A program made the position numbers and the translations under genes. Of a DNA stretch of 55,136 nucleotides, positions 4,700 to 45,141 are shown in pieces. The stretch's first letter is position 1, and every line of letters begins with the position of its first letter. The notes under the pieces were generated by a model. It searched no databases, was not told the origin of the DNA, and saw only the letters and a list, made by a program, of their open reading frames with translations. The stretch covers positions 1-55,136 of the IMG/VR virus record IMGVR_UViG_3300046004_002451. One strand, given 5' to 3'. Source of the stretch: a virus. Its lineage: Duplodnaviria; Caudoviricetes.

Positions 4700-4731
4700 A
4701 AGCCGCTGCCTTACCGGGCAGCGGCTTTTTT
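4700..4731 (+). terminator. Rho-independent terminator overlapping the integrase stop codon
   Basis: AAGCCGCTGCC-ttaccg-GGCAGCGGCTT followed by a T-run, between convergent genes. Confidence 0.8.
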
Positions 4732-5943
4732 CTTTGGGCTGAACGCCTTGTTGAGAGCCTTCGACTTCGTCGCGTCTTCCAGGTGCGTGTAGATCAGGTT
4801 TGTTGCGTCATTTGAGTGACCTGTGATCATGCGCCGGACCTCCGGCGTGACGCCGGCATTGGCGAGCAGGCTGTTGCAGGTGTGTCGGAGGGAGTGGAAC
4901 GTCAGAGAATTGAAGGAGAGCCCCCTACCCTGCCCTTCGACCTTCCGGCCTTTGATGCCGGCGGCCTTGAGGATCTCCGTGAACTGCGTGCTCAGGCCTC
5001 GGTTGCGGGCGGCGTGCACCCCGGCCAATGAGGGGGCGAGGTAAAGTGAATCCGTCGGTTCCTGCCACAACTCCGTCAGATGGCTCGCCAGCGGTCCCAC
5101 GATGGGGATACGCATTTTCTTCTTCGTCTTCCCCTGACTCATCTCCCATATCCATGTGCCGGGCTGCACGACGATTTGCGTGCGTAGGGCGTTCGCGCAG
5201 TCCGTGAGGCGCTGAGAGGTGCAAAGCCCAAGCAGCGTCACCGTAAGCCAGTCACGGCGCTCCGGCTTCGCGCGCAGATGGCTCAGAAGTCGCTCCACCT
5301 CTGCCGGCGTGTAAGGGTCGCGGGTGTTGGAGTTGTTGAGTTCTCGGGAGATGAGATTCACCGGGTTGCGGGTCGCATAGCCTTCGTCACGAGCCCTCTC
5401 GAAGATTGTCGAGATTGTCGAGGCCGCGATATTCATGGTCGTCGGCTTCAGTCCCTCCTCAATGCCGCTCAGATACCAGTTTTGCAGCATCTCACCGGTG
5501 AAGGACCCAAGCGCCAGCTCCACATCTTTTCCCAGCCACTCGGTGAAGTTATTGACGTAGCTCGTGTAGGCCTTCAGGGAGGAAGCGCTGAGCGTCTTTG
5601 GCACCCGCTTGGCAGCCGCCTTGAGCCATGCCTCTGAGTACGACTTCCAGCTTTTTGAGTCCACCACTTCCCTGTGCCCTGCGAGCCGTAGAATGTCATT
5701 GATGACCTCCACCACGAAGTCGCGTGAGATCCTGGCCGCACCGCTGACACCGCCCGCCGCCAGCGATACCCGCTCAAACTCACGAGCGATCTCCAGAGCC
5801 TTGGCCTCGTCTGTGCAGCGTGTCGATTTCATGGCCTGCTTCCACCGCTGCGCCCTTGCATCCCACACCTGAAACACCGCCGAATAGTACAGCGATTTCT
5901 TGCGACGGTAAACCGCTGCGGGTCGGGCGAGGGGCGGGGTCAT
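4711..5943 (-). CDS. int: Phage tyrosine integrase
   Basis: Catalytic R (SQRLTD), K (GKTKK), HSLRH, GHS and Y (IYTH); N-terminal arm-binding-like and SAM-like regions; start taken at MTPPLARP (5943). Confidence 0.92.
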   Translation of the reverse strand: MTPPLARPAAVYRRKKSLYYSAVFQVWDARAQRWKQAMKSTRCTDEAKALEIAREFERVSLAAGGVSGAARISRDFVVEVINDILRLAGHREVVDSKSWKSYSEAWLKAAAKRVPKTLSASSLKAYTSYVNNFTEWLGKDVELALGSFTGEMLQNWYLSGIEEGLKPTTMNIAASTISTIFERARDEGYATRNPVNLISRELNNSNTRDPYTPAEVERLLSHLRAKPERRDWLTVTLLGLCTSQRLTDCANALRTQIVVQPGTWIWEMSQGKTKKKMRIPIVGPLASHLTELWQEPTDSLYLAPSLAGVHAARNRGLSTQFTEILKAAGIKGRKVEGQGRGLSFNSLTFHSLRHTCNSLLANAGVTPEVRRMITGHSNDATNLIYTHLEDATKSKALNKAFSPKKKAAAR

Positions 5944-6238
5944 GGATGTAATAAAATAGCGGCGAGTGATAATGCCCGTGCTAAAGAATGTCAACAAAGA
6001 GAAAACAGCGTAAAACAAGAAATAAAGATGTAAAAGGCTGGAAATAAGCGCCTTACCAACACACTCCAAAACGCTGCAAAGATGTCAAAAACCCCTTAGA
6101 CTCATATAGGAGATGTCTTTTTAAAAGGCTGTTGCCTGGGTAAATGGGGCGTAAATGGCATGGGTGATAATGTAGGTGCTAAATTTGTGACACCCGTTCG
6201 AGTGTTGCAAATATTACATTAGCTCGCATGGTAGCCGG
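5944..6238. other. Candidate attP / divergent promoter region
   Basis: AT-rich non-coding gap next to int with short repeats (AGATGT at 6026, 6080, 6111; TAAAAGGCTG at 6031, 6122; GTGATAATG at 5966, 6164; GTAAATGG at 6140, 6151). Confidence 0.5.
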
Positions 6239-6520
6239 ATGCCTTTCGTGAGCAAGAAGCAGGTGGAGAATTACCACGCGGAGTATCGGCCTGAGTTCCG
6301 GGCCGGGAAGCGGCGCATGGAGCCTGGTGATTTAGCCACGGCTTTGGGCGAACTGCGGGCGCTGCGGGCGCTGGTGCAGAAGCAGCGGAAACGCATCTGG
6401 TTTTTAGAGCACAAGGAGGAAGCCAGCGCAAAGCAGCGCCGCCGGCGGCGGGATGTGCTCGTCCAGGATGCGGCAGCGGCTTTGGCAAATTTGGCAAAAG
6501 AACCCAGGAAAACAAAATGA
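6239..6520 (+). CDS. Hypothetical coiled-coil protein
   Basis: 93 aa ORF, ATGA-coupled to the next gene. Confidence 0.6.
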   Translation: MPFVSKKQVENYHAEYRPEFRAGKRRMEPGDLATALGELRALRALVQKQRKRIWFLEHKEEASAKQRRRRRDVLVQDAAAALANLAKEPRKTK

Positions 6521-7152
6521 GTACAGCTTTATCAATCGAAGTTACCGGTATCAATGCTGATCAGCAGCAAGTCCTCGCTGAAATCCTAGCGGACGTAAAA
6601 GCATCTGTTGATCGGCTTGCCCGAGCGGCCCGCCGATGGGTTGAACTACCTGAGCGCGCGCGCGAAAAGATTATTGAGCAGTCGCCAGCGTCTTTACGTG
6701 AGTTTTGGGGCCGGCTGGAGCGGGTGGGTCTCGGATCGCTCCATCCTCAACTCGCCACTGTAGGTGGCACGGCGGCACGGTTACTGGGTCGGCTGCCTCT
6801 GATTGAGCAGGAGCGCTACCTGCGCGAGCTGGTGCCAGTAGTCGTATCACGCGGCCGGGGATGGGACATCCGGCTGATTGATGTGGCTGAGTTGAGCGAT
6901 GATCAGCGTAAGCAGGTTTTCAAAATTGCTCCTGCCGGCGCCGTAGAGGTCCGGGACGCAGAAATGCAAAAGGCCTGGTTGGCCGATAAAGCCGCGCGGC
7001 GGGTGCTCGCTGAGCAAACTGGGGCAACCCTAAAACGCGTCGAACGGGCCGGGTGGCGCGTTGAGCGTGGCCGGGTATTTGTTAAGGAGGGGCTTCTCGT
7101 AGCAGGTATCACTCGGGCTCAGTTGGAGCGCATGATTGCGGATCTTGAGTAA
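6517..7152 (+). CDS. Hypothetical protein
   Basis: 211 aa ORF with natural composition, coupled to the upstream gene. Confidence 0.7.
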   Translation: MSTALSIEVTGINADQQQVLAEILADVKASVDRLARAARRWVELPERAREKIIEQSPASLREFWGRLERVGLGSLHPQLATVGGTAARLLGRLPLIEQERYLRELVPVVVSRGRGWDIRLIDVAELSDDQRKQVFKIAPAGAVEVRDAEMQKAWLADKAARRVLAEQTGATLKRVERAGWRVERGRVFVKEGLLVAGITRAQLERMIADLE

Positions 7153-7205
7153 CTCGGTGCGTGTTGGTTTGCCCCGAACGGGTGCATGATATGTGGTCAA
7201 TTCGT

Positions 7206-7448
7206 TCAGTGATCTGTACTGTTCAGTATCTTTTTCGCGTAGTCCTCGATATGCCGAGCGGACAGACCCGCATAGGCAATGTATTCGAGAGCATCACGGT
7301 ATTTGTCCCGCTCCTCTGCAAGCACTGCATAACAACTATCTCCGTGCTTCGCTTTTGCGATTTCTGACCACAACTCATCACGTTGTCGGCGCAGATACTC
7401 ACATTCAGATCCTGAACAATTGGATGCAGCACAATTCGCTTCACTCAT
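7206..7448 (-). CDS. Cassette-like hypothetical protein (80 aa)
   Basis: Starts inside the 7412-7468 hairpin; ends ...ILNSTDH across a degenerate core. Confidence 0.7.
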   Translation of the reverse strand: MSEANCAASNCSGSECEYLRRQRDELWSEIAKAKHGDSCYAVLAEERDKYRDALEYIAYAGLSARHIEDYAKKILNSTDH

Positions 7449-7468
7449 GGCTGATCCTTTCCGTTCAG
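7412..7468 (+). repeat. attC-like site (57 bp)
   Basis: CTGAAC-aatt-GGAT[G]CAGC ... GCTGATCC-tttcc-GTTCAG; ATGA stop/start overlap at 7445-7448 inside. Confidence 0.85.
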
Positions 7469-7672
7469 CGATCCATCATCGTGCGATGGTGCCTCGCTCA
7501 GCATGTCTATCATGAGGTTCGTGAGAGTCTCCCACCCAAGCCGCCCCATTCGCAGCGTCAGCAGGGTGCCGTCTTCCAGCGTGTGCTTGATCTGGTATTC
7601 CTGCTCACCGGGCACGGGAGAGCGGCCATTAGCTTCAGGGTGATCGTAGGTTGTGTATGTGAGTTCCTTCAT
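7445..7672 (-). CDS. Cassette-like hypothetical protein (75 aa, MKELTYTT...)
   Basis: ATG at 7672; ends SLNGKDQP inside the attC-like site. Confidence 0.7.
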   Translation of the reverse strand: MKELTYTTYDHPEANGRSPVPGEQEYQIKHTLEDGTLLTLRMGRLGWETLTNLMIDMLSEAPSHDDGSLNGKDQP

Positions 7673-7690
7673 AGTCTTGGGTGGTTCGGG

Positions 7691-7781
7691 CTGAACCATG
7701 GCACTGCTGCCAACGGCTCGTAAATATCTGTCATGCTTGCGGCGGCTTCTCGCTCGCCGTCGGCAGAGTTGGTTCGTTCTG
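7691..7781 (+). repeat. attC-like site (91 bp)
   Basis: CTGAAC-catggc-ACT[G]CTGCCaACGGC ... GCCGTcGGCAGAGT-tggttc-GTTCTG. Confidence 0.85.
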
Positions 7782-8126
7782 TGAATTGCGCTCGCGCTCC
7801 ATTTCGGCATCGAGGTCGCTGAAATCAGCGTTGGTTTGCCACACTTCAACGGCGCGACCATTTTCCCATTTTACACGGTAAACTCCCCATTCGTAGCCAT
7901 CGTCATCAAGGTTGCCGTGAGTGCAATCGTGCAACCATTTCATCCGCGCTTCGTATCGTTCTAATTCCACGATGCGCTTGCCAGCATCGAGTAGGAGTTC
8001 GCCGAGCGACTTTCCGACAGACACAGAACCAGCGGATGCAGGCAATGAGCCACGCCTCGGTTTGGTGCATCCAGTCCGGTGGGTCTGCCAAGATTCGCCG
8101 CACACATCACAGTGATAGTAGCTCAT
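7731..8126 (-). CDS. Cassette-like hypothetical protein (131 aa) with N-terminal CxxC
   Basis: Begins and ends within attC-like hairpins; ATGA overlaps at both ends. Confidence 0.7.
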   Translation of the reverse strand: MSYYHCDVCGESWQTHRTGCTKPRRGSLPASAGSVSVGKSLGELLLDAGKRIVELERYEARMKWLHDCTHGNLDDDGYEWGVYRVKWENGRAVEVWQTNADFSDLDAEMERERNSQNEPTLPTASEKPPQA

Positions 8127-8146
8127 GCCTGATCCTTTCCGTTCGG
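8024..8146 (+). repeat. attC-like site (123 bp)
   Basis: CAGAAC-cagc-GGAT[G]CAGGCA[A]TGAGC ... GCTCATGCCTGATCC-tttcc-GTTCGG; two extrahelical bases; shares the 16-mer CTGATCCTTTCCGTTC with the 7412 site. Confidence 0.9.
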
Positions 8147-8437
8147 CGGAAGTTGCAGGCTCTCGAATACCTCGTCCTTGGCATATCCAATCTGACGCTC
8201 CCGCCTGCCGTGCAGCGAGCGTTCAGCAATGTATTTCACGACTCCGGTTTTCCAGCGTAGCAGTTCAATGATCTTCCAACCCGCCAGCATGTTGATCGAG
8301 GTGATGACGTTGTTCACAAAGTCGAGGTGACTTTTCTCTGCTGCGACACGTTGCGCGTATTCCCACTCCGCCGAACAATTCTGCTGCTGGACAACAGAGC
8401 GGGGCTTTGTGGTATCATCGAGTTGATTCTGATTCAT
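8123..8437 (-). CDS. Cassette-like hypothetical protein (104 aa)
   Basis: N-terminal ...QQQNCSA half-site signature; C-terminal PPNGKDQA. Confidence 0.7.
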   Translation of the reverse strand: MNQNQLDDTTKPRSVVQQQNCSAEWEYAQRVAAEKSHLDFVNNVITSINMLAGWKIIELLRWKTGVVKYIAERSLHGRRERQIGYAKDEVFESLQLPPNGKDQA

Positions 8438-8450
8438 GATTTTGACTCAT

Positions 8451-8675
8451 TCATAGTGGATAGCGATGCGAGCATCGTGGGCAATCAAAGGCTCCGTAGT
8501 CACCCCAGCCTTTCCAGAAAGATTCCCACCACGTCGCCTCCGTGCGGTATGTGGTTTCCCATTCGCCGCAGCTTGGGCAGTGCCACGGGAAATAATCTCC
8601 ACGCTGCGACAAATCGCGGCAAGCTGAACCATGTGCTGTTCCCAATTCGGAGGGCGGTGATGTCGTAGGTGTCAT
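8451..8675 (-). CDS. Small double-CxxC zinc-ribbon protein (74 aa)
   Basis: WHCPSCG...FDCPRCS; AAAGGAG RBS upstream, inside the hairpin loop. Confidence 0.75.
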   Translation of the reverse strand: MTPTTSPPSELGTAHGSACRDLSQRGDYFPWHCPSCGEWETTYRTEATWWESFWKGWGDYGAFDCPRCSHRYPL

Positions 8676-8719
8676 GGTTGCTCCTTTCCGCCCTCCTCAT
8701 GGGAGAGCGAAGCGCTCTG
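8624..8719 (+). repeat. attC-like site (96 bp) with mutated R' core
   Basis: CTGAAC-catgt-GCT[G]tTCCCA[A]TtcGGAGGGCGG ... CCGCCCTCCtcATGGGAgAGC-gaagc-GCTCTG (GTT changed to GCT). Confidence 0.8.
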
Positions 8720-8721
8720 GA

Positions 8722-8928
8722 CTACGCTTCATCTGTTTCCGGCGCGGGTTTGAAGTCACCATCCGCGTCACAGTGAACGGGCGGCCATCCGTTCCGCTTG
8801 ATGTCCAAGTGCCGCAGCAGCCTTTTGAGCGGGTGGCAGATGATTTGCCGCGTGGCTTCGCAGACGGTGTAGAGCATGAAAAATGAGATGAAGGGATGCT
8901 CCATCATGAAGGGTAAGAGGTCTTTCAT
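8722..8928 (-). CDS. Small membrane-associated hypothetical protein (68 aa, MKDLLPFM...)
   Basis: Hydrophobic N-terminal half; C-terminal GWPPVHCDADGDFK motif. Confidence 0.7.
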   Translation of the reverse strand: MKDLLPFMMEHPFISFFMLYTVCEATRQIICHPLKRLLRHLDIKRNGWPPVHCDADGDFKPAPETDEA

Positions 8929-8938
8929 TTTGTCGTGT

Positions 8939-9511
8939 TCATGGTAGTTTTGCGCTCGCCGTCGCCTGATCCGGGGCGTTCGCCAGCCGCAGCAGCACGT
9001 CCGCATGGCAAGCCGTCCCATTCTTGCACCAGCACGCTAGATTCTTGCCACACAGAGTTTTCAGATTGTCCAGCATCCACTGCTTTCGCTCGGGTATTCC
9101 AGCGGTAACGCCTTCGACCGTGAGCCATGTTTGGAATGCGCCGACGGCGAGGATTTGCGGCCGCTCCGGTGTGACCTTGAACGGGTTACCCCACTTCGAA
9201 GGCCGCGAGACCACGACTGTATTCGGTGGCAGTTTCGCGCCTGCCTTCCTGGAGAGTTGCACACGATGCGGCATAGCTTGAGCAGGTAGTGGTAGAGGTA
9301 TAAAGTCATCAGCAGGTAGGCCAGGCTGATATTGTTTTGGCGGATTCATCAGCCTTCGGCGCGCCCGGTCGCACATTGGAAACCATGCCACTCGCGGGTA
9401 GTCGAAGAGCCATTGAGCAGCATGGTTCCTTTCGGCGCAGCCTTCGGACACACACAGCACCACTGACCCAGCGTCAGGAGTCAACCGCTCTGGAGTATCG
9501 TTTGTATTCAT
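8939..9511 (-). CDS. DUF4326 domain protein
   Basis: VSRPSKWGNPF ... LCGKNLACWC...CHADVLLRLAN; ATG at 9511 overlaps the upstream stop. Confidence 0.85.
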   Translation of the reverse strand: MNTNDTPERLTPDAGSVVLCVSEGCAERNHAAQWLFDYPRVAWFPMCDRARRRLMNPPKQYQPGLPADDFIPLPLPAQAMPHRVQLSRKAGAKLPPNTVVVSRPSKWGNPFKVTPERPQILAVGAFQTWLTVEGVTAGIPERKQWMLDNLKTLCGKNLACWCKNGTACHADVLLRLANAPDQATASAKLP

Positions 9512-9552
9512 TGGCGGCATTGGTTCGCTGGTGAGTCAGCCTTTACGTTCGG
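9463..9552 (+). repeat. attC-like site (90 bp), degenerate
   Basis: CTGACC...GGAGTCA[A]CCGC ... GCTGGTGAGTCAGCC-tttac-GTTCGG; R'' AAC changed to ACC; ATGA overlap at 9508-9511 inside. Confidence 0.6.
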
Positions 9553-9807
9553 CTTACACAGTGAGATCACCGCCAGTTGCTCCATCTTCACGGAGTTCTG
9601 CACGCCATCAAAAACAGCGTCCCGAAGGAGGCAGGCTTTTGCCACGGAGAGCGCCGTGCGATTGGCCGGAGTGTCTTCAACTTGCACCACCATTCGCAGG
9701 AGGCATATCGGCAGTGGCACGGAAGCCGACCCCAGCACTGGTGCCAATCGCCGGGGCTTTTGGCCTTTGGTCGCTTTCTTCTTCAATGGTGTCTTTTTGG
9801 TCTTCAT
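9508..9807 (-). CDS. Cassette-like hypothetical protein (99 aa)
   Basis: RRLAPVLGSA N-terminal and KPNVKADSP C-terminal hairpin-encoded peptides. Confidence 0.7.
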   Translation of the reverse strand: MKTKKTPLKKKATKGQKPRRLAPVLGSASVPLPICLLRMVVQVEDTPANRTALSVAKACLLRDAVFDGVQNSVKMEQLAVISLCKPNVKADSPANQCRQ

Positions 9808-9854
9808 GAATCAGTCGTGGTTAGTCCGGCGGTCGGCAAAGTTGTTTCGTTCGC
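9726..9854 (+). repeat. attC-like site (129 bp)
   Basis: CCGACC-ccagc-ACT[G]gTGCCaAtCGCCGG ... CCGGCGgTcGGCAaAGT-tgtttc-GTTCGC; ATGA overlap at 9804-9807 inside. Confidence 0.75.
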
Positions 9855-10115
9855 CCTTCCAGTTGCCATGCGACTCGCCTCCTGAATTGCCACCATCAAG
9901 TCAGCAGCGATGCAATGAGCTTCTTCGATGGATATTCCATGATCCACGGTGCGGAGCTTCCAATCCGCGCTGGTTGTGTCCCAAGACACGGTTCGCAGGT
10001 AAATTTTCCCGTATTTGTTCACAAATGCCCCGTTCTTGGGCGAACAAGACGCAGCACGCGCCGCGCCGCACTCCTCGGTTTTCTCAGGCTTCAATTCTTC
10101 GTTTTCGTTTGGCAT
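9804..10115 (-). CDS. Cassette-like hypothetical protein (103 aa)
   Basis: ARAASCSP and RANETTLPT signatures. Confidence 0.7.
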   Translation of the reverse strand: MPNENEELKPEKTEECGAARAASCSPKNGAFVNKYGKIYLRTVSWDTTSADWKLRTVDHGISIEEAHCIAADLMVAIQEASRMATGRANETTLPTAGLTTTDS

Positions 10116-10144
10116 AGATTTCAGACTTGGGGCATTCGATTCTT

Positions 10145-43539: not shown

Positions 43540-44816
43540 CGCGTTGCAATGACTGCGGGCTGTGGTTGAGGGGTAGGACGTTGAACACCTCTCTTGAGGC
43601 GATCCTGTGCATTCTTGTCGCCGAACAGGAATTTGCCACCCGCGGCACCGGCTTTGCCAATCATTTCACCGCCGGCTGCTAATACTCCCCCGACGACATC
43701 CGGGGTTTTTAGGAGTGGTGCTGCCAGCGTTCCAACCCCTTTGGCTATGGCTACAGGTCCGGGTGTGGCATCATGCTGGTCCAGCCGAGTTTGAGCCTCT
43801 GCGAATGCTGGTGAGGCAGTGGCAGGTGCAAAGCTCGGCGCCGGCGTCGGTGCCGGTAAACCAGCCATACCTTCGTTGATGATGGCTAGTCGGCCGGCGG
43901 GTGTCATGTTCTGCGGCACGCTTGTGCCTCCTGTGCTCGCTGCTACAGCGGCAGGTGTAGATAATGCCTTGGGCGGTCCTTGATCAATAAGGGCCCGTCC
44001 CACGGCGCTGGGGGCATTTGCTGGGTTTACTGGATAGGCGGGGGTCGGGGCTGCTGCTACGGTGGGCGGGGCGGCCACGGGCGGCGGTGTCATCGGTGGT
44101 TTAGTGACTGCGCCGGCGAGGACGGCCGGCGGTGTGGCAATCTGCCCAAACACACCAGCCGCTTGCCGTTGTTTAGCAAAGGCGGTGGCTGCTGCTAGGC
44201 GTGGGTCACTAGGCCTTTGGCCGGCGGGCAACTGGGTACTGCTGCCGCTGCCAAATTGTGAGCCGGCAATAGTCTGCGCGCCACTTTGGCCGGGCATGAT
44301 GCGGGCTCCTGACGCAAACTGAACACCATTGGCATCTCGAGCCGTGATGCCATTCTTGGCATCATTAAGTCCGCGCGAAATACCTGCAGCGGCGGCCTCA
44401 GCACCACGAACTGCGCCATCATGAGCTACCTGTGATTGTGCGTTGATCCCGTCACCCGTTGGGGCCGGCGGGGGGGTCAATCCGCTGAACATTGGTGGCG
44501 GAGCTGTTGGCGCCGCGCGCGGAGTGAGCCCTACGCCCCCGGATAATGGCCCACCTTTCACATATCCACTTTTCCCAGTTGGAACGGGGGCGCCGGAAAG
44601 GATGGCTTGCTGCATGTCCGGTTTAGTGAGCCCCTTAAATGGTCCATCTTTTACGCGCGTGCCTTTGGTGCTGGTTGTGACGGTGCCTCGGCCGGCTTCA
44701 CGCATATCACGACCTTCCGTGTCGATGATGTTCTGCTTAAACGCTATTTGCTCGGCGGGAGTGAGCGGGGGTAATTTACGATCAGCGCGGCGTCGTTGTT
44801 CTTGTTCGAGAGTCAT
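43536..44816 (-). CDS. Pro/Ala/Gly-rich putative internal virion protein
   Basis: 426 aa low-complexity ORF in the portal operon. Confidence 0.6.
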   Translation of the reverse strand: MTLEQEQRRRADRKLPPLTPAEQIAFKQNIIDTEGRDMREAGRGTVTTSTKGTRVKDGPFKGLTKPDMQQAILSGAPVPTGKSGYVKGGPLSGGVGLTPRAAPTAPPPMFSGLTPPPAPTGDGINAQSQVAHDGAVRGAEAAAAGISRGLNDAKNGITARDANGVQFASGARIMPGQSGAQTIAGSQFGSGSSTQLPAGQRPSDPRLAAATAFAKQRQAAGVFGQIATPPAVLAGAVTKPPMTPPPVAAPPTVAAAPTPAYPVNPANAPSAVGRALIDQGPPKALSTPAAVAASTGGTSVPQNMTPAGRLAIINEGMAGLPAPTPAPSFAPATASPAFAEAQTRLDQHDATPGPVAIAKGVGTLAAPLLKTPDVVGGVLAAGGEMIGKAGAAGGKFLFGDKNAQDRLKRGVQRPTPQPQPAVIATR

Positions 44817-44856
44817 GGTGATGATGTGAAAAGTTTGAAACTAGGTGTCATGGGTG

Positions 44857-45141
44857 TCATCTAACCGGATTGAGAATCTGCGCACGAGCACGAGCTTCCA
44901 TGTCTCGAAGCATCTGGAACAGCGGGTTAAGTGTGCGGTAGGTCGCAAGCGCTGCACTATCAGGCGGCACACCCGCTTCCACGGCTTCGAGGATTTGGAC
45001 TTTCGCGCCTTCGAGGTCGATCGTGAGCTTTGGTAATAGCCACTCAGTCCAGCCAGCGCATTTTTTCAGTGATTCCAACCAGCGAATGATTCCACCTGCA
45101 TCAAGCGGCGGAGTTTTTGGCTTGTCGGGCGATGGCAGCAT
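44857..45141 (-). CDS. Small protein following portal
   Basis: 94 aa helical ORF starting 3 nt after the portal stop. Confidence 0.65.
   Translation of the reverse strand: MLPSPDKPKTPPLDAGGIIRWLESLKKCAGWTEWLLPKLTIDLEGAKVQILEAVEAGVPPDSAALATYRTLNPLFQMLRDMEARARAQILNPVR

Follow-up and report, generated by a model that had tools for sequence, protein, structure and literature searches.

Short open reading frames with an ATGA overlap at each end bridge gaps between small genes in the early operon of a metagenomic tailed phage

Introduction

Where the stop codon of one gene is overlapped by the start codon of the next on the same strand, as in the four-base ATGA (-4) arrangement, the downstream gene can be translated by termination-reinitiation, and passages of two studies describe reporter coupling that falls steeply with distance (PMC10666635, PMC12548453). 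According to the relevant passages of the former, genes must overlap or be separated by a very short gap for reinitiation, which about 20 nucleotides (nt) nearly abolish; a gap of 2 nt costs 5–70%, and one of 38 nt costs 80–100% in E. coli (PMC10666635). Short open reading frames (ORFs) take part in two related systems: coupling at the ORF within a mycobacterial interspersed repetitive unit (MIRU) lets that element sit in an operon with little harm, and a short cistron whose stop overlaps the start of a gene, as in bicistronic designs, removes dependence on local RNA structure, according to parts of one paper (PMC12548453). Here we describe three short ORFs (micro-ORFs) in a stretch of 55,136 bases, referred to below as the window, which is the whole of IMG/VR virus record IMGVR_UViG_3300046004_002451 and is estimated to be ~90% complete. 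Each of these micro-ORFs extends from the stop codon of one small gene to the start codon of the next. We lean towards reading them as uncoupled leader cistrons of junction modules that separate cassette-like units, and as keeping the stop/start overlaps through which ribosomes can reinitiate.

Two further systems have small phage genes separated by repeated elements. Clusters of attC sites without an integrase (CALINs) are reported, in the part of a survey relevant here, in 17 cases among temperate, virulent, and uncharacterised phages (PMC9892861). In the PeSL cassettes of T4-type phages, short conserved junction elements lie between small ORFan genes, and excerpts of the description attribute modular shuffling and mini-circles to them (PMC2839356).

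Micro-ORFs in a chain of ATGA overlaps

The array lies at the far end of a long minus-strand early operon and contains nine small genes from 10115 to 7206, all on the minus strand: 10115-9804, 9807-9508, 9511-8939 (a DUF4326 gene), 8928-8722, 8675-8451, 8437-8123, 8126-7731, 7672-7445, and 7448-7206. The genes were curated by hand; greedy length-based ORF calls chose spurious antisense ORFs in this region. With the curated starts, the successive junctions are -4, -4, +10, +46, +13, -4, +58, and -4, with direct -4 overlaps at 9807, 9511, 8126, and 7448 (that at 9511 presumes that the DUF4326 gene uses its second ATG; with its first, at 9520, the overlap would be 13 nt). The +10, +13, and +58 gaps are each bridged by a micro-ORF, and the +46 gap is unbridged.

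The micro-ORF MNTTK (5 codons; 8925..8942, minus) lies between the DUF4326 gene (stop at 8939) and a gene for a 68-aa protein (start at 8928). MNESKS (6 codons; 8434..8454, minus) lies between a 74-aa gene (stop at 8451) and a 104-aa gene (start at 8437), and MTDIYEPLAAVPWFSPNHPRL (21 codons; 7669..7734, minus) runs from the stop of a 131-aa gene to the ATG at 7672, where a 75-aa gene begins. The TGA within the first ATGA closes an open frame of 198 (8942), 81 (8454), or 163 (7734) codons, and the ATG within the second opens an ORF of 68 (8928), 104 (8437), or 75 (7672) codons, such that at both ends of all three a stop is overlapped by the next start on the same strand. A script reporting every ORF of 2–25 codons with ATGA at both ends found MNTTK and MNESKS. 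A preliminary description of this DNA had placed three doubly overlapping minus-strand micro-ORFs here and had named the 8624-8719 site as the sole break in the chain from 10115 to 7206; the sequence and the ORF listing bear out the former, and the curated chain, in which 8722/8675 is the sole uncoupled junction, the latter. An ATG immediately after the stop codon of the 74-aa gene (TGAATG) opens an 11-codon frame (8415-8450, minus) that crosses the start at 8437 and also ends in ATGA.

A fourth ORF of this type, which like the other three we call a relay, is present outside the array in the structural operon, downstream of the portal gene. This ORF, MTPMTPSFKLFTSSP (15 codons; 44813..44860, minus), is preceded by a 94-aa gene (45141-44857) and followed by a 426-aa gene (44816-43536). 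It opens with a 9-base tandem repeat, ATGACACC(C/T).

Contigs from four runs match the sequence around the array relays without differences (X1, 6500-7804; X2, 7948-8708; X3, 8329-8984; X4, 7590-7740), and the micro-ORF sequences are thus no assembly slip; this agreement shows that the sequence is real and nothing more.

At the one uncoupled junction, J5 (8619..8726, minus), the TAG at 8722 is followed by a 46-nt gap and by a local hairpin (z-score -1.6) with arms GAGGGCGG and CCGCCCTC. The loop between these arms contains the ATG at 8675 and also AAAGGAG, the latter in agreement with the preliminary description, which also spoke of a mutated R′. The 5′ GAAC core expected of the junction modules described below is replaced here (repeat family D1, 70% identity), and the 3′ GTTC core at 8629 is intact. 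Similarity of J5 to other contigs begins at 8719.

Placement of the micro-ORFs

Double-ATGA micro-ORFs as a class are about as numerous as in shuffled sequence, with 15 on the minus strand compared with 12.8 ± 3.8 in 200 dinucleotide shuffles, and it is where they lie, not how many there are, that is unusual. Among the curated genes 17 stops have the form A|TGA, of which 13 are in direct -4 overlaps, four are followed by relays, and none is an orphan. The remaining non-overlapping stops are TAA, TAG, or TGA preceded by C, G, or T, and five minus-strand "orphans" of the automatic call are all alternative-frame or antisense ORFs. Two more double-ATGA cases, inside or opposite the giant gene described below, satisfy a naive flank test by accident.

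The chance that an orphan ATGA stop is followed by a relay was taken as 9/21 (the fraction of free-standing ATG starts followed by A), times 1/3 for the frame, times 0.964 per internal codon from base composition. By this arithmetic, which is our own, the four relays have chances of 0.12, 0.12, 0.07, and 0.09, with a product of ~9e-5, or ~7e-4 if the two homologous short ORFs are counted once; the placement is non-random. For the 21-codon ORF considered as a +1-shifted frame, we estimate that an ending in A|TGA arises by chance in ~8% of cases.

Junction modules

A repeated module is present at every junction of the chain, and two forms of it are clear: class A (7405-7478 and 8018-8156) and class B (7686-7791 and 9721-9864). 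Class A has the order GAAC, GGAAA, GGATCAGx, a loop with ATGA, xCTG(C)ATCC, four bases, and GTTC, and class B has the order GAACGAAxCAACTxTGCCGAC ... GCCGxTGGCA ... GTTC. The class-A module J9 (7405..7478, minus) is composed of GAAC, GGAAA, GGATCAGC, a loop containing the ATGA at 7448, GCTG(C)ATCC, AATT, and GTTC (folding free energy -25.5, z -2.5), and J7 (8018..8156, minus), also of class A, has a long loop and the ATGA at 8126 within its stem (z -1.06). In the class-B module J8 (7686..7791, minus), which reads GAACGAACCAACTCTGCCGACGGC ... GCCGTTGGCAGCAGTGCCATGGTTC, the ATGA at 7734 is in the loop (z -1.5). The class-A inner stem, GGATCAGx / xCTG(C)ATCC, has a constant bulged C and loops of ~19 to 85 nt, and its closing base covaries, as judged by eye, in three forms (CAGC/GCTG, CAGGC/GCCTG, and CAGT/ACTG). 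A consensus fold of 11 class-B modules has 22 pairs, two of them compensatory, with AAC and GTT present in 11 of 11.

The module cores keep a fixed codon phase, with GTTC in phase 2 (xGT TCx) at eight of nine cores and GAAC in phase 3 (xxG AAC) at all eight, and each protein therefore consists of a module-encoded leader, a body, and a module-encoded tail (e.g. NGKDQA). From one GTTC to the next, the length is 2 mod 3 where the genes are joined by a single ATGA (332, 314, 263, and 347), 1 mod 3 where MNESKS contributes a second ATGA (253), and 0 mod 3 (333 and 279) in the two units that flank the out-of-phase core at 7696, with three ATGAs in all. The micro-ORFs exactly restore the reading frame to the phase of the next module. 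The family of the 131-aa protein is conserved from about residue 50 onward, and the homologue of the 75-aa body (P0045) aligns with residues 15-78 of an 84-aa called form of this protein and lacks the NGKDQP tail; leader and tail are thus module-encoded and lie outside the conserved protein.

The preliminary description proposed that continuous ribosome transit along the relays is selected in order to melt the hairpins and to avoid polarity; occlusion of starts would likewise be prevented. Several properties of the modules are in keeping with this idea: class-A and class-B modules fold with the ATGA in a loop or stem, most clearly at J9, their pairing includes the compensatory and covarying positions noted above, and the 21-codon micro-ORF is read across the 3′ arm of J8. 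However, the RNA folds of the MNTTK and MNESKS junctions (z -0.89 and +0.79) are no better than shuffles, J8 and J7 reach only the values given above, and no junction module was recognised by eye at the fourth relay at 44860, a site that was not folded. The part of the proposal that stands is the unbroken series of -4 overlaps, which is unlikely to be a chance arrangement. The link to hairpins is weak, since no significant hairpin is present at the junctions of the two short ORFs and J8, which holds the 21-codon ORF, has a z of only -1.5; it holds for at most one micro-ORF, and we regard selection for hairpin melting as an unlikely account of the relays.

Origin of the micro-ORFs

The 3′ half of J8 was found in 12 IMG/VR stretches, 10 of them distinct, and in all 10 a leader (M..TTSAPKVGSSA[IM]V or similar) is in frame through GTTC into the body, although one of these ORFs ends at a contig edge; the ten bodies all differ. 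The closest leader, MTDTIRAVGSSAIVR, is in locus L056 (loci of relatives carry L numbers). The window copy shares its start (MTD...) and ATGACAGAT but has one base fewer before CGAGCC, and the conserved frame RAVGSSAMV persists in the window, where it is in frame with the 75-aa body in an ORF of 138 codons. The 21-codon micro-ORF is thus a J8 leader shifted out of frame by its 1-nt shortfall relative to L056. Its stop either happens to overlap a Met codon of the 75-aa body or was kept for that overlap. A further 1-nt length variant is present at 7703 in contigs from other samples.

MNTTK and MNESKS are homologous at the DNA level and have in common a 16-base pattern, ATGAAYRMGWCAAAAT, which occurs exactly at just these two sites in the window; allowing up to two mismatches gives three matches in the window, a count reached by 0 of 100 shuffles. 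Their lengths differ by one codon, so both keep the relay frame. Both resemble the opening codons of class-B-type leaders (MNT..., MNE...), and one member of the 68-aa family opens with MNTD fused in frame, where the window instead has MNTTK, a stop, and then MKDLL. A search of viral contigs with the short-ORF junction pattern CYACYATGAAYRMGWCAAAAT gave three matches, all in unrelated sequence of low GC content and taken as chance. An origin of MNESKS by tandem duplication of the next start was considered and rejected, with 10 of 18 bases matching by eye.

These comparisons also bear on the possibility that the micro-ORFs encode functional micropeptides. Beyond the existence of the ORFs nothing speaks for such a role, and the lengths of just 5–21 residues, the identity of the 21-residue product as an out-of-frame reading of a conserved leader, and the differences between the two short ones in length and at three of five aligned residues make it extremely improbable.

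The segment from 8952 to 8720, which holds MNTTK and the 68-aa gene, is absent from a related form of the module (8720..8952, minus), where a compact class-A module is found instead. At a joint in one contig (X2) that connects 8043 to 8953, position 8953 abuts the 3′ half of a class-A module (the shorter side of this joint is 20 letters, and the sequence between the two sides is unknown), which suggests that 8952-8720 is an insert inside a module. Related events are seen elsewhere. Loci L033 and L027 contain a 12-codon ORF, MKDCYANGKDQS, in which a leader start passes nearly straight onto a class-A tail with ATGA at both ends, and L026 has a full body at the same position. This relay in L033, a leader plus a tail with almost no body, shows how such ORFs may arise. 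At the position of a whole unit in L025, L024 has a stump of 4 codons, MSDI. Truncated leaders without a relay are also present, including MSANFANRQSA in L023 (TAA and then 12 nt), MSDSEIEPHPVVRNFT in L027 (TAG and then 6 nt), and MSDI at array ends. By these comparisons the micro-ORFs are remnants of module leaders and not purpose-built devices.

Initiation and reinitiation in the array

Shine-Dalgarno (SD)-like motifs are nearly absent upstream of gene starts in the window, with GGAAAGGA present in class-A modules alone. Free-standing genes have an A/C-rich stretch before the start, and in 9 of 21 such genes with an ATG start the next base is A. The near absence of SD sites makes reinitiation at stop-start overlaps plausible. 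Because coupling collapses over ~20–38 nt in the reporter passages cited above (PMC10666635), the 58-nt gap between 7731 and 7672 would uncouple the 75-aa gene and so need a bridge, and on the same basis the 10- and 13-nt gaps would weaken coupling.

We suggest the following sequence of events. A normal module would provide the final codons and the TGA with which the upstream gene ends, an ATG that overlaps this stop as ATGA, a leader of ~10–30 codons, and the GTTC core, with the leader in frame into the next body. An indel or a non-standard join would put leader and body out of frame, so that the leader would end after 5–21 codons at a TGA overlapping the body's own ATG; at 7734 the leader would be 1 nt short, and at 8942 and 8454 cut-down leader-like starts would be used. 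A micro-ORF running from a stop to the next start would restore two -4 overlaps, as suits an operon without SD sites. With every stop of the chain but one overlapped by a start, ribosomes could reinitiate immediately, and twice in series where needed, and variants that keep the overlap would be retained because the downstream genes stay expressed. We infer both that the micro-ORFs are translated and that overlap-keeping variants have been retained for downstream expression; the idea that the chain of coupling is maintained is plausible and agrees with the counts.

A different explanation is that the downstream genes begin elsewhere, for example at the ATG at 7699 for the 75-aa gene, such that the micro-ORFs are never read. 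The source annotation calls an 84-aa protein from 7699 (P0044), and it calls the 131-aa ORF as 97 aa from a GTG just past the GTTC core (P0001). However, there is no SD ahead of 7699, and the homologue of the 75-aa body, unrelated over its first 14 residues, carries a Met at a distance of one residue from where the ATG at 7672 falls. For the 68-aa family the aligned first Met is common to six of seven homologues, and ATG 8928 is therefore a real start. Wrongly placed starts are thus an improbable explanation, somewhat more so than hairpin melting.

Alternatively, the micro-ORFs could be neutral scars left by frameshift, truncation, or cassette loss in the modules, having no role and followed by genes that start on their own. 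All three originate as leader remnants, truncated leaders without a relay exist in relatives (L023, L027, and the MSDI array ends), and uncoupled genes of this phage start after A/C-rich stretches without an SD, so independent initiation exists. Against this, orphan ATGA stops are followed by relays in four of four cases here but in ~2 of 11 distinct cases in relatives (Fisher ~0.01, by our own arithmetic and on unchecked calls for the relatives), and the starts at 8928, 8437, and 7672 have neither an SD nor the long A/C-rich leader of free-standing genes. We consider neutral scars a possible but rather unlikely explanation, although less unlikely than wrongly placed starts or hairpin melting.

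Several observations weigh against relays that maintain coupling. Double-ATGA micro-ORFs are not enriched genome-wide, and the relay formed by the 21-codon ORF could be luck. MNTTK and MNESKS are homologous, and the independent events are therefore fewer than three. The 11-codon frame at 8450 is a possible competitor of the MNESKS relay, the start at 7699 chosen by the source's gene caller lies inside the 21-codon micro-ORF, and two reinitiations in series may lower yield. In addition, in 16 loci of relatives, scored on the sense strand by automatic calls, there are 45 direct overlaps, two relays, and 13 micro-ORFs of other kinds. Since the 13 include two that are truncated at the end of a locus and two pairs of duplicates, ~9 are distinct, and the calls are unchecked; with two relays to ~9 distinct non-relays, a relay is no general rule of the modules.

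Cassette-like behaviour of the array

The exact 22-base class-A pattern is present in four other IMG/VR contigs and in 21 metagenome stretches, ~13 of them distinct. In these copies the sequence to the left of GAAC differs and the bodies to the right of GTTC differ, and in L043 the J7 leader of the window is joined to a different body after GTTC. The sequence after GTTC is complementary to that before GAAC of the same unit in runs of 5, 4, 5, 6, 4, 3, and 2, compared with 1, 1, 0, 0, 0, and 2 at the adjacent junction; the unit from 9468 to 8983 has a run of 0. Complementarity of a unit's own ends is also present in five units of relatives in which both ends are clear, and two naive pairings gave 0 (L034, in which a second unit lies between the ends, and L039, for which the same is only assumed).

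Gain and loss of whole units can be seen directly in some comparisons. L034 and L035 differ by exactly one module plus body, flanked by GAAC. In three lake-metagenome runs, far more abundant contigs carry the 7775-8025 body (16 letters and two gaps differing over 251 bases) joined to the 8626-8719 module at a shared TGGTTC, which skips 600 bases, exactly two units, and places a different module after this body. The small genes thus behave like cassette units and the modules like recombination sites, with whole units gained, lost, or swapped at the cores, a pattern characteristic of integron cassettes.

Module-bearing relatives include T4-like loci (L025 and L036, with gp32, gp59, and Thy1), a locus with DnaB and HTH proteins (L051), and one with PolA, DUF2800, and primase (L023), and the 22-base class-A core or the class-B module is present in these unrelated phage types. 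No recombinase was found among 29 large ORFs scanned from six relative loci. The T4-like arrays end in a truncated class-A module, ATGAGCGATA then TCTAATATAAAATGGG, at seven loci (L024, L028, L034-L036, L041, and L047).

A bolder proposal, which we put forward tentatively and hold to be somewhat less than evenly probable, is an in-frame cassette system of phages, in which bodies lacking start and stop codons would be exchanged at the 4–6-nt GAAC/GTTC cores of attC-like hairpins by integron-like or other hairpin-directed recombination, with the micro-ORFs marking places where phase was lost or a body is missing. The C-terminal tail, ATGA overlap, and N-terminal leader would all come from the module, so that cassettes in whatever order would be translated as one coupled chain, and the presence of the same modules in T4-like, DnaB/HTH, PolA/primase, and the present integrase-bearing phage would reflect cassette traffic across phage lineages. 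We offer this as context for the micro-ORFs, and as a bold case that is unsettled.

Genome context

The window reads as a temperate tailed phage. It encodes a tyrosine integrase (4711-6069, minus), a replication initiator, SSB, a DHH phosphoesterase, the DUF4326 protein, an SU10-type portal, the large terminase, and a major head protein. Sequences of this phage are present in seven runs, all of them metagenomes from lakes or freshwater and none listed as an RNA run. One ORF (20995-42843, minus) is 7,282 codons long and takes up 40% of the record. Antisense open frames of 176, 113, and 153 codons lie opposite the array on the plus strand (7193-7723, 8327-8668, and 9656-10117) and are probably a by-product of composition.

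Three chain genes have homologues: the 131-aa protein (43 matches), the 75-aa body (one match), and the 68-aa protein (seven matches). The 131-aa protein (7731-8126, minus) belongs to a widespread small family with the invariant core RLxWLH ... DGYEWG.YRVKW.NG ... DFSDLDA, for which no Pfam or PHROG name was found. In the 68-aa family (8722-8928, minus) the N-terminal half is hydrophobic and the motif GWPPxHCDADGDFKP is invariant.

No relative with the same gene order was found in viral contigs searched with the 131-aa, 104-aa, and DHH proteins, and the five loci matched by a profile of the 131-aa family all have different neighbours. One scan of genome contigs gave distant DUF4326 matches and nothing closer, and neither the 3-kb region nor either of the modules queried had a match among GenBank phages. 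An Rfam search returned as its sole match a sub-threshold L31 leader at 8681-8707 (E 0.2), and between 6900 and 10800 there are 0 sigma-70-like promoter sites, compared with 2.1 ± 1.3 in shuffles.

Comparison with known systems

The modules resemble attC sites and CALINs in that small genes lie between imperfect inverted repeats with pairing AAC ... GTT cores (GAAC/GTTC here), with an inner stem that has one bulged base and a variable loop, cassette-specific end complementarity, and the gain, loss, and swapping of single units at the cores. However, the RYYYAAC/GTTRRRY consensus is not matched, as in most copies AAC is preceded by G and GTT is followed by C, although GTTAGCC (L044) and GCTTAAC (at a loose contig end) do fit. 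Unlike attC sites, the modules are inside coding sequence, keep a fixed codon phase, and carry the stop/start overlap, and the relatives that bear them belong to unrelated phage types, in whose scanned large ORFs no recombinase was found. The 4711-6069 integrase scores 17.8 bits on TIGR02249 (cut-off 265) and is not an integron integrase, which a complete integron would need and a CALIN would not.

The PeSL of T4-type phages is a promoter plus terminator stem-loop between genes, whereas no sigma-70-like promoter was found in the array and the element here is predicted to be translated through. A literature search for phage cassette or stem-loop systems gave no paper, and literature searches with module 12-mers gave unrelated papers alone among the matches listed, a result that does not show the motif to be unpublished. 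The larger point is the context, in which modules resembling recombination sites lie within coding sequence, in fixed phase, and are common to unrelated uncultivated phages. Such a module system would combine the shuffling of genes with the coupling of their translation in one element, and would help explain how small accessory genes are gained and lost without silencing the genes downstream.

The relays share with ordinary -4 termination-reinitiation a same-strand stop overlapped by the next start, but differ in having two overlaps in series linked by an ORF of 5–21 codons, in a nine-gene chain with nearly no SD sites. As with the coupler ORFs of MIRUs, the element at the junctions is repeated, with copies both in the window and in further contigs, and the ORF inside it is coupled at -4 nt. 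MIRUs, however, are in mycobacterial chromosomes and are not known to be related in sequence to the modules, and the hairpin-forming module here normally yields a leader that is in frame, with the micro-ORF as a broken version. Ribosome-delivering upstream ORFs and bicistronic designs have their own ribosome-binding site, whereas the micro-ORFs described here would begin by reinitiation at the upstream stop.

What is new here is a variant of a coupling already known from short ORFs. Should the relays work, they would be a natural repair of a broken stop-start overlap that does not restore the reading frame, with a few codons between two ATGAs carrying the ribosome over a gap that would otherwise stop reinitiation, and they would be the natural counterpart of engineered bicistronic designs and of MIRU ORFs.

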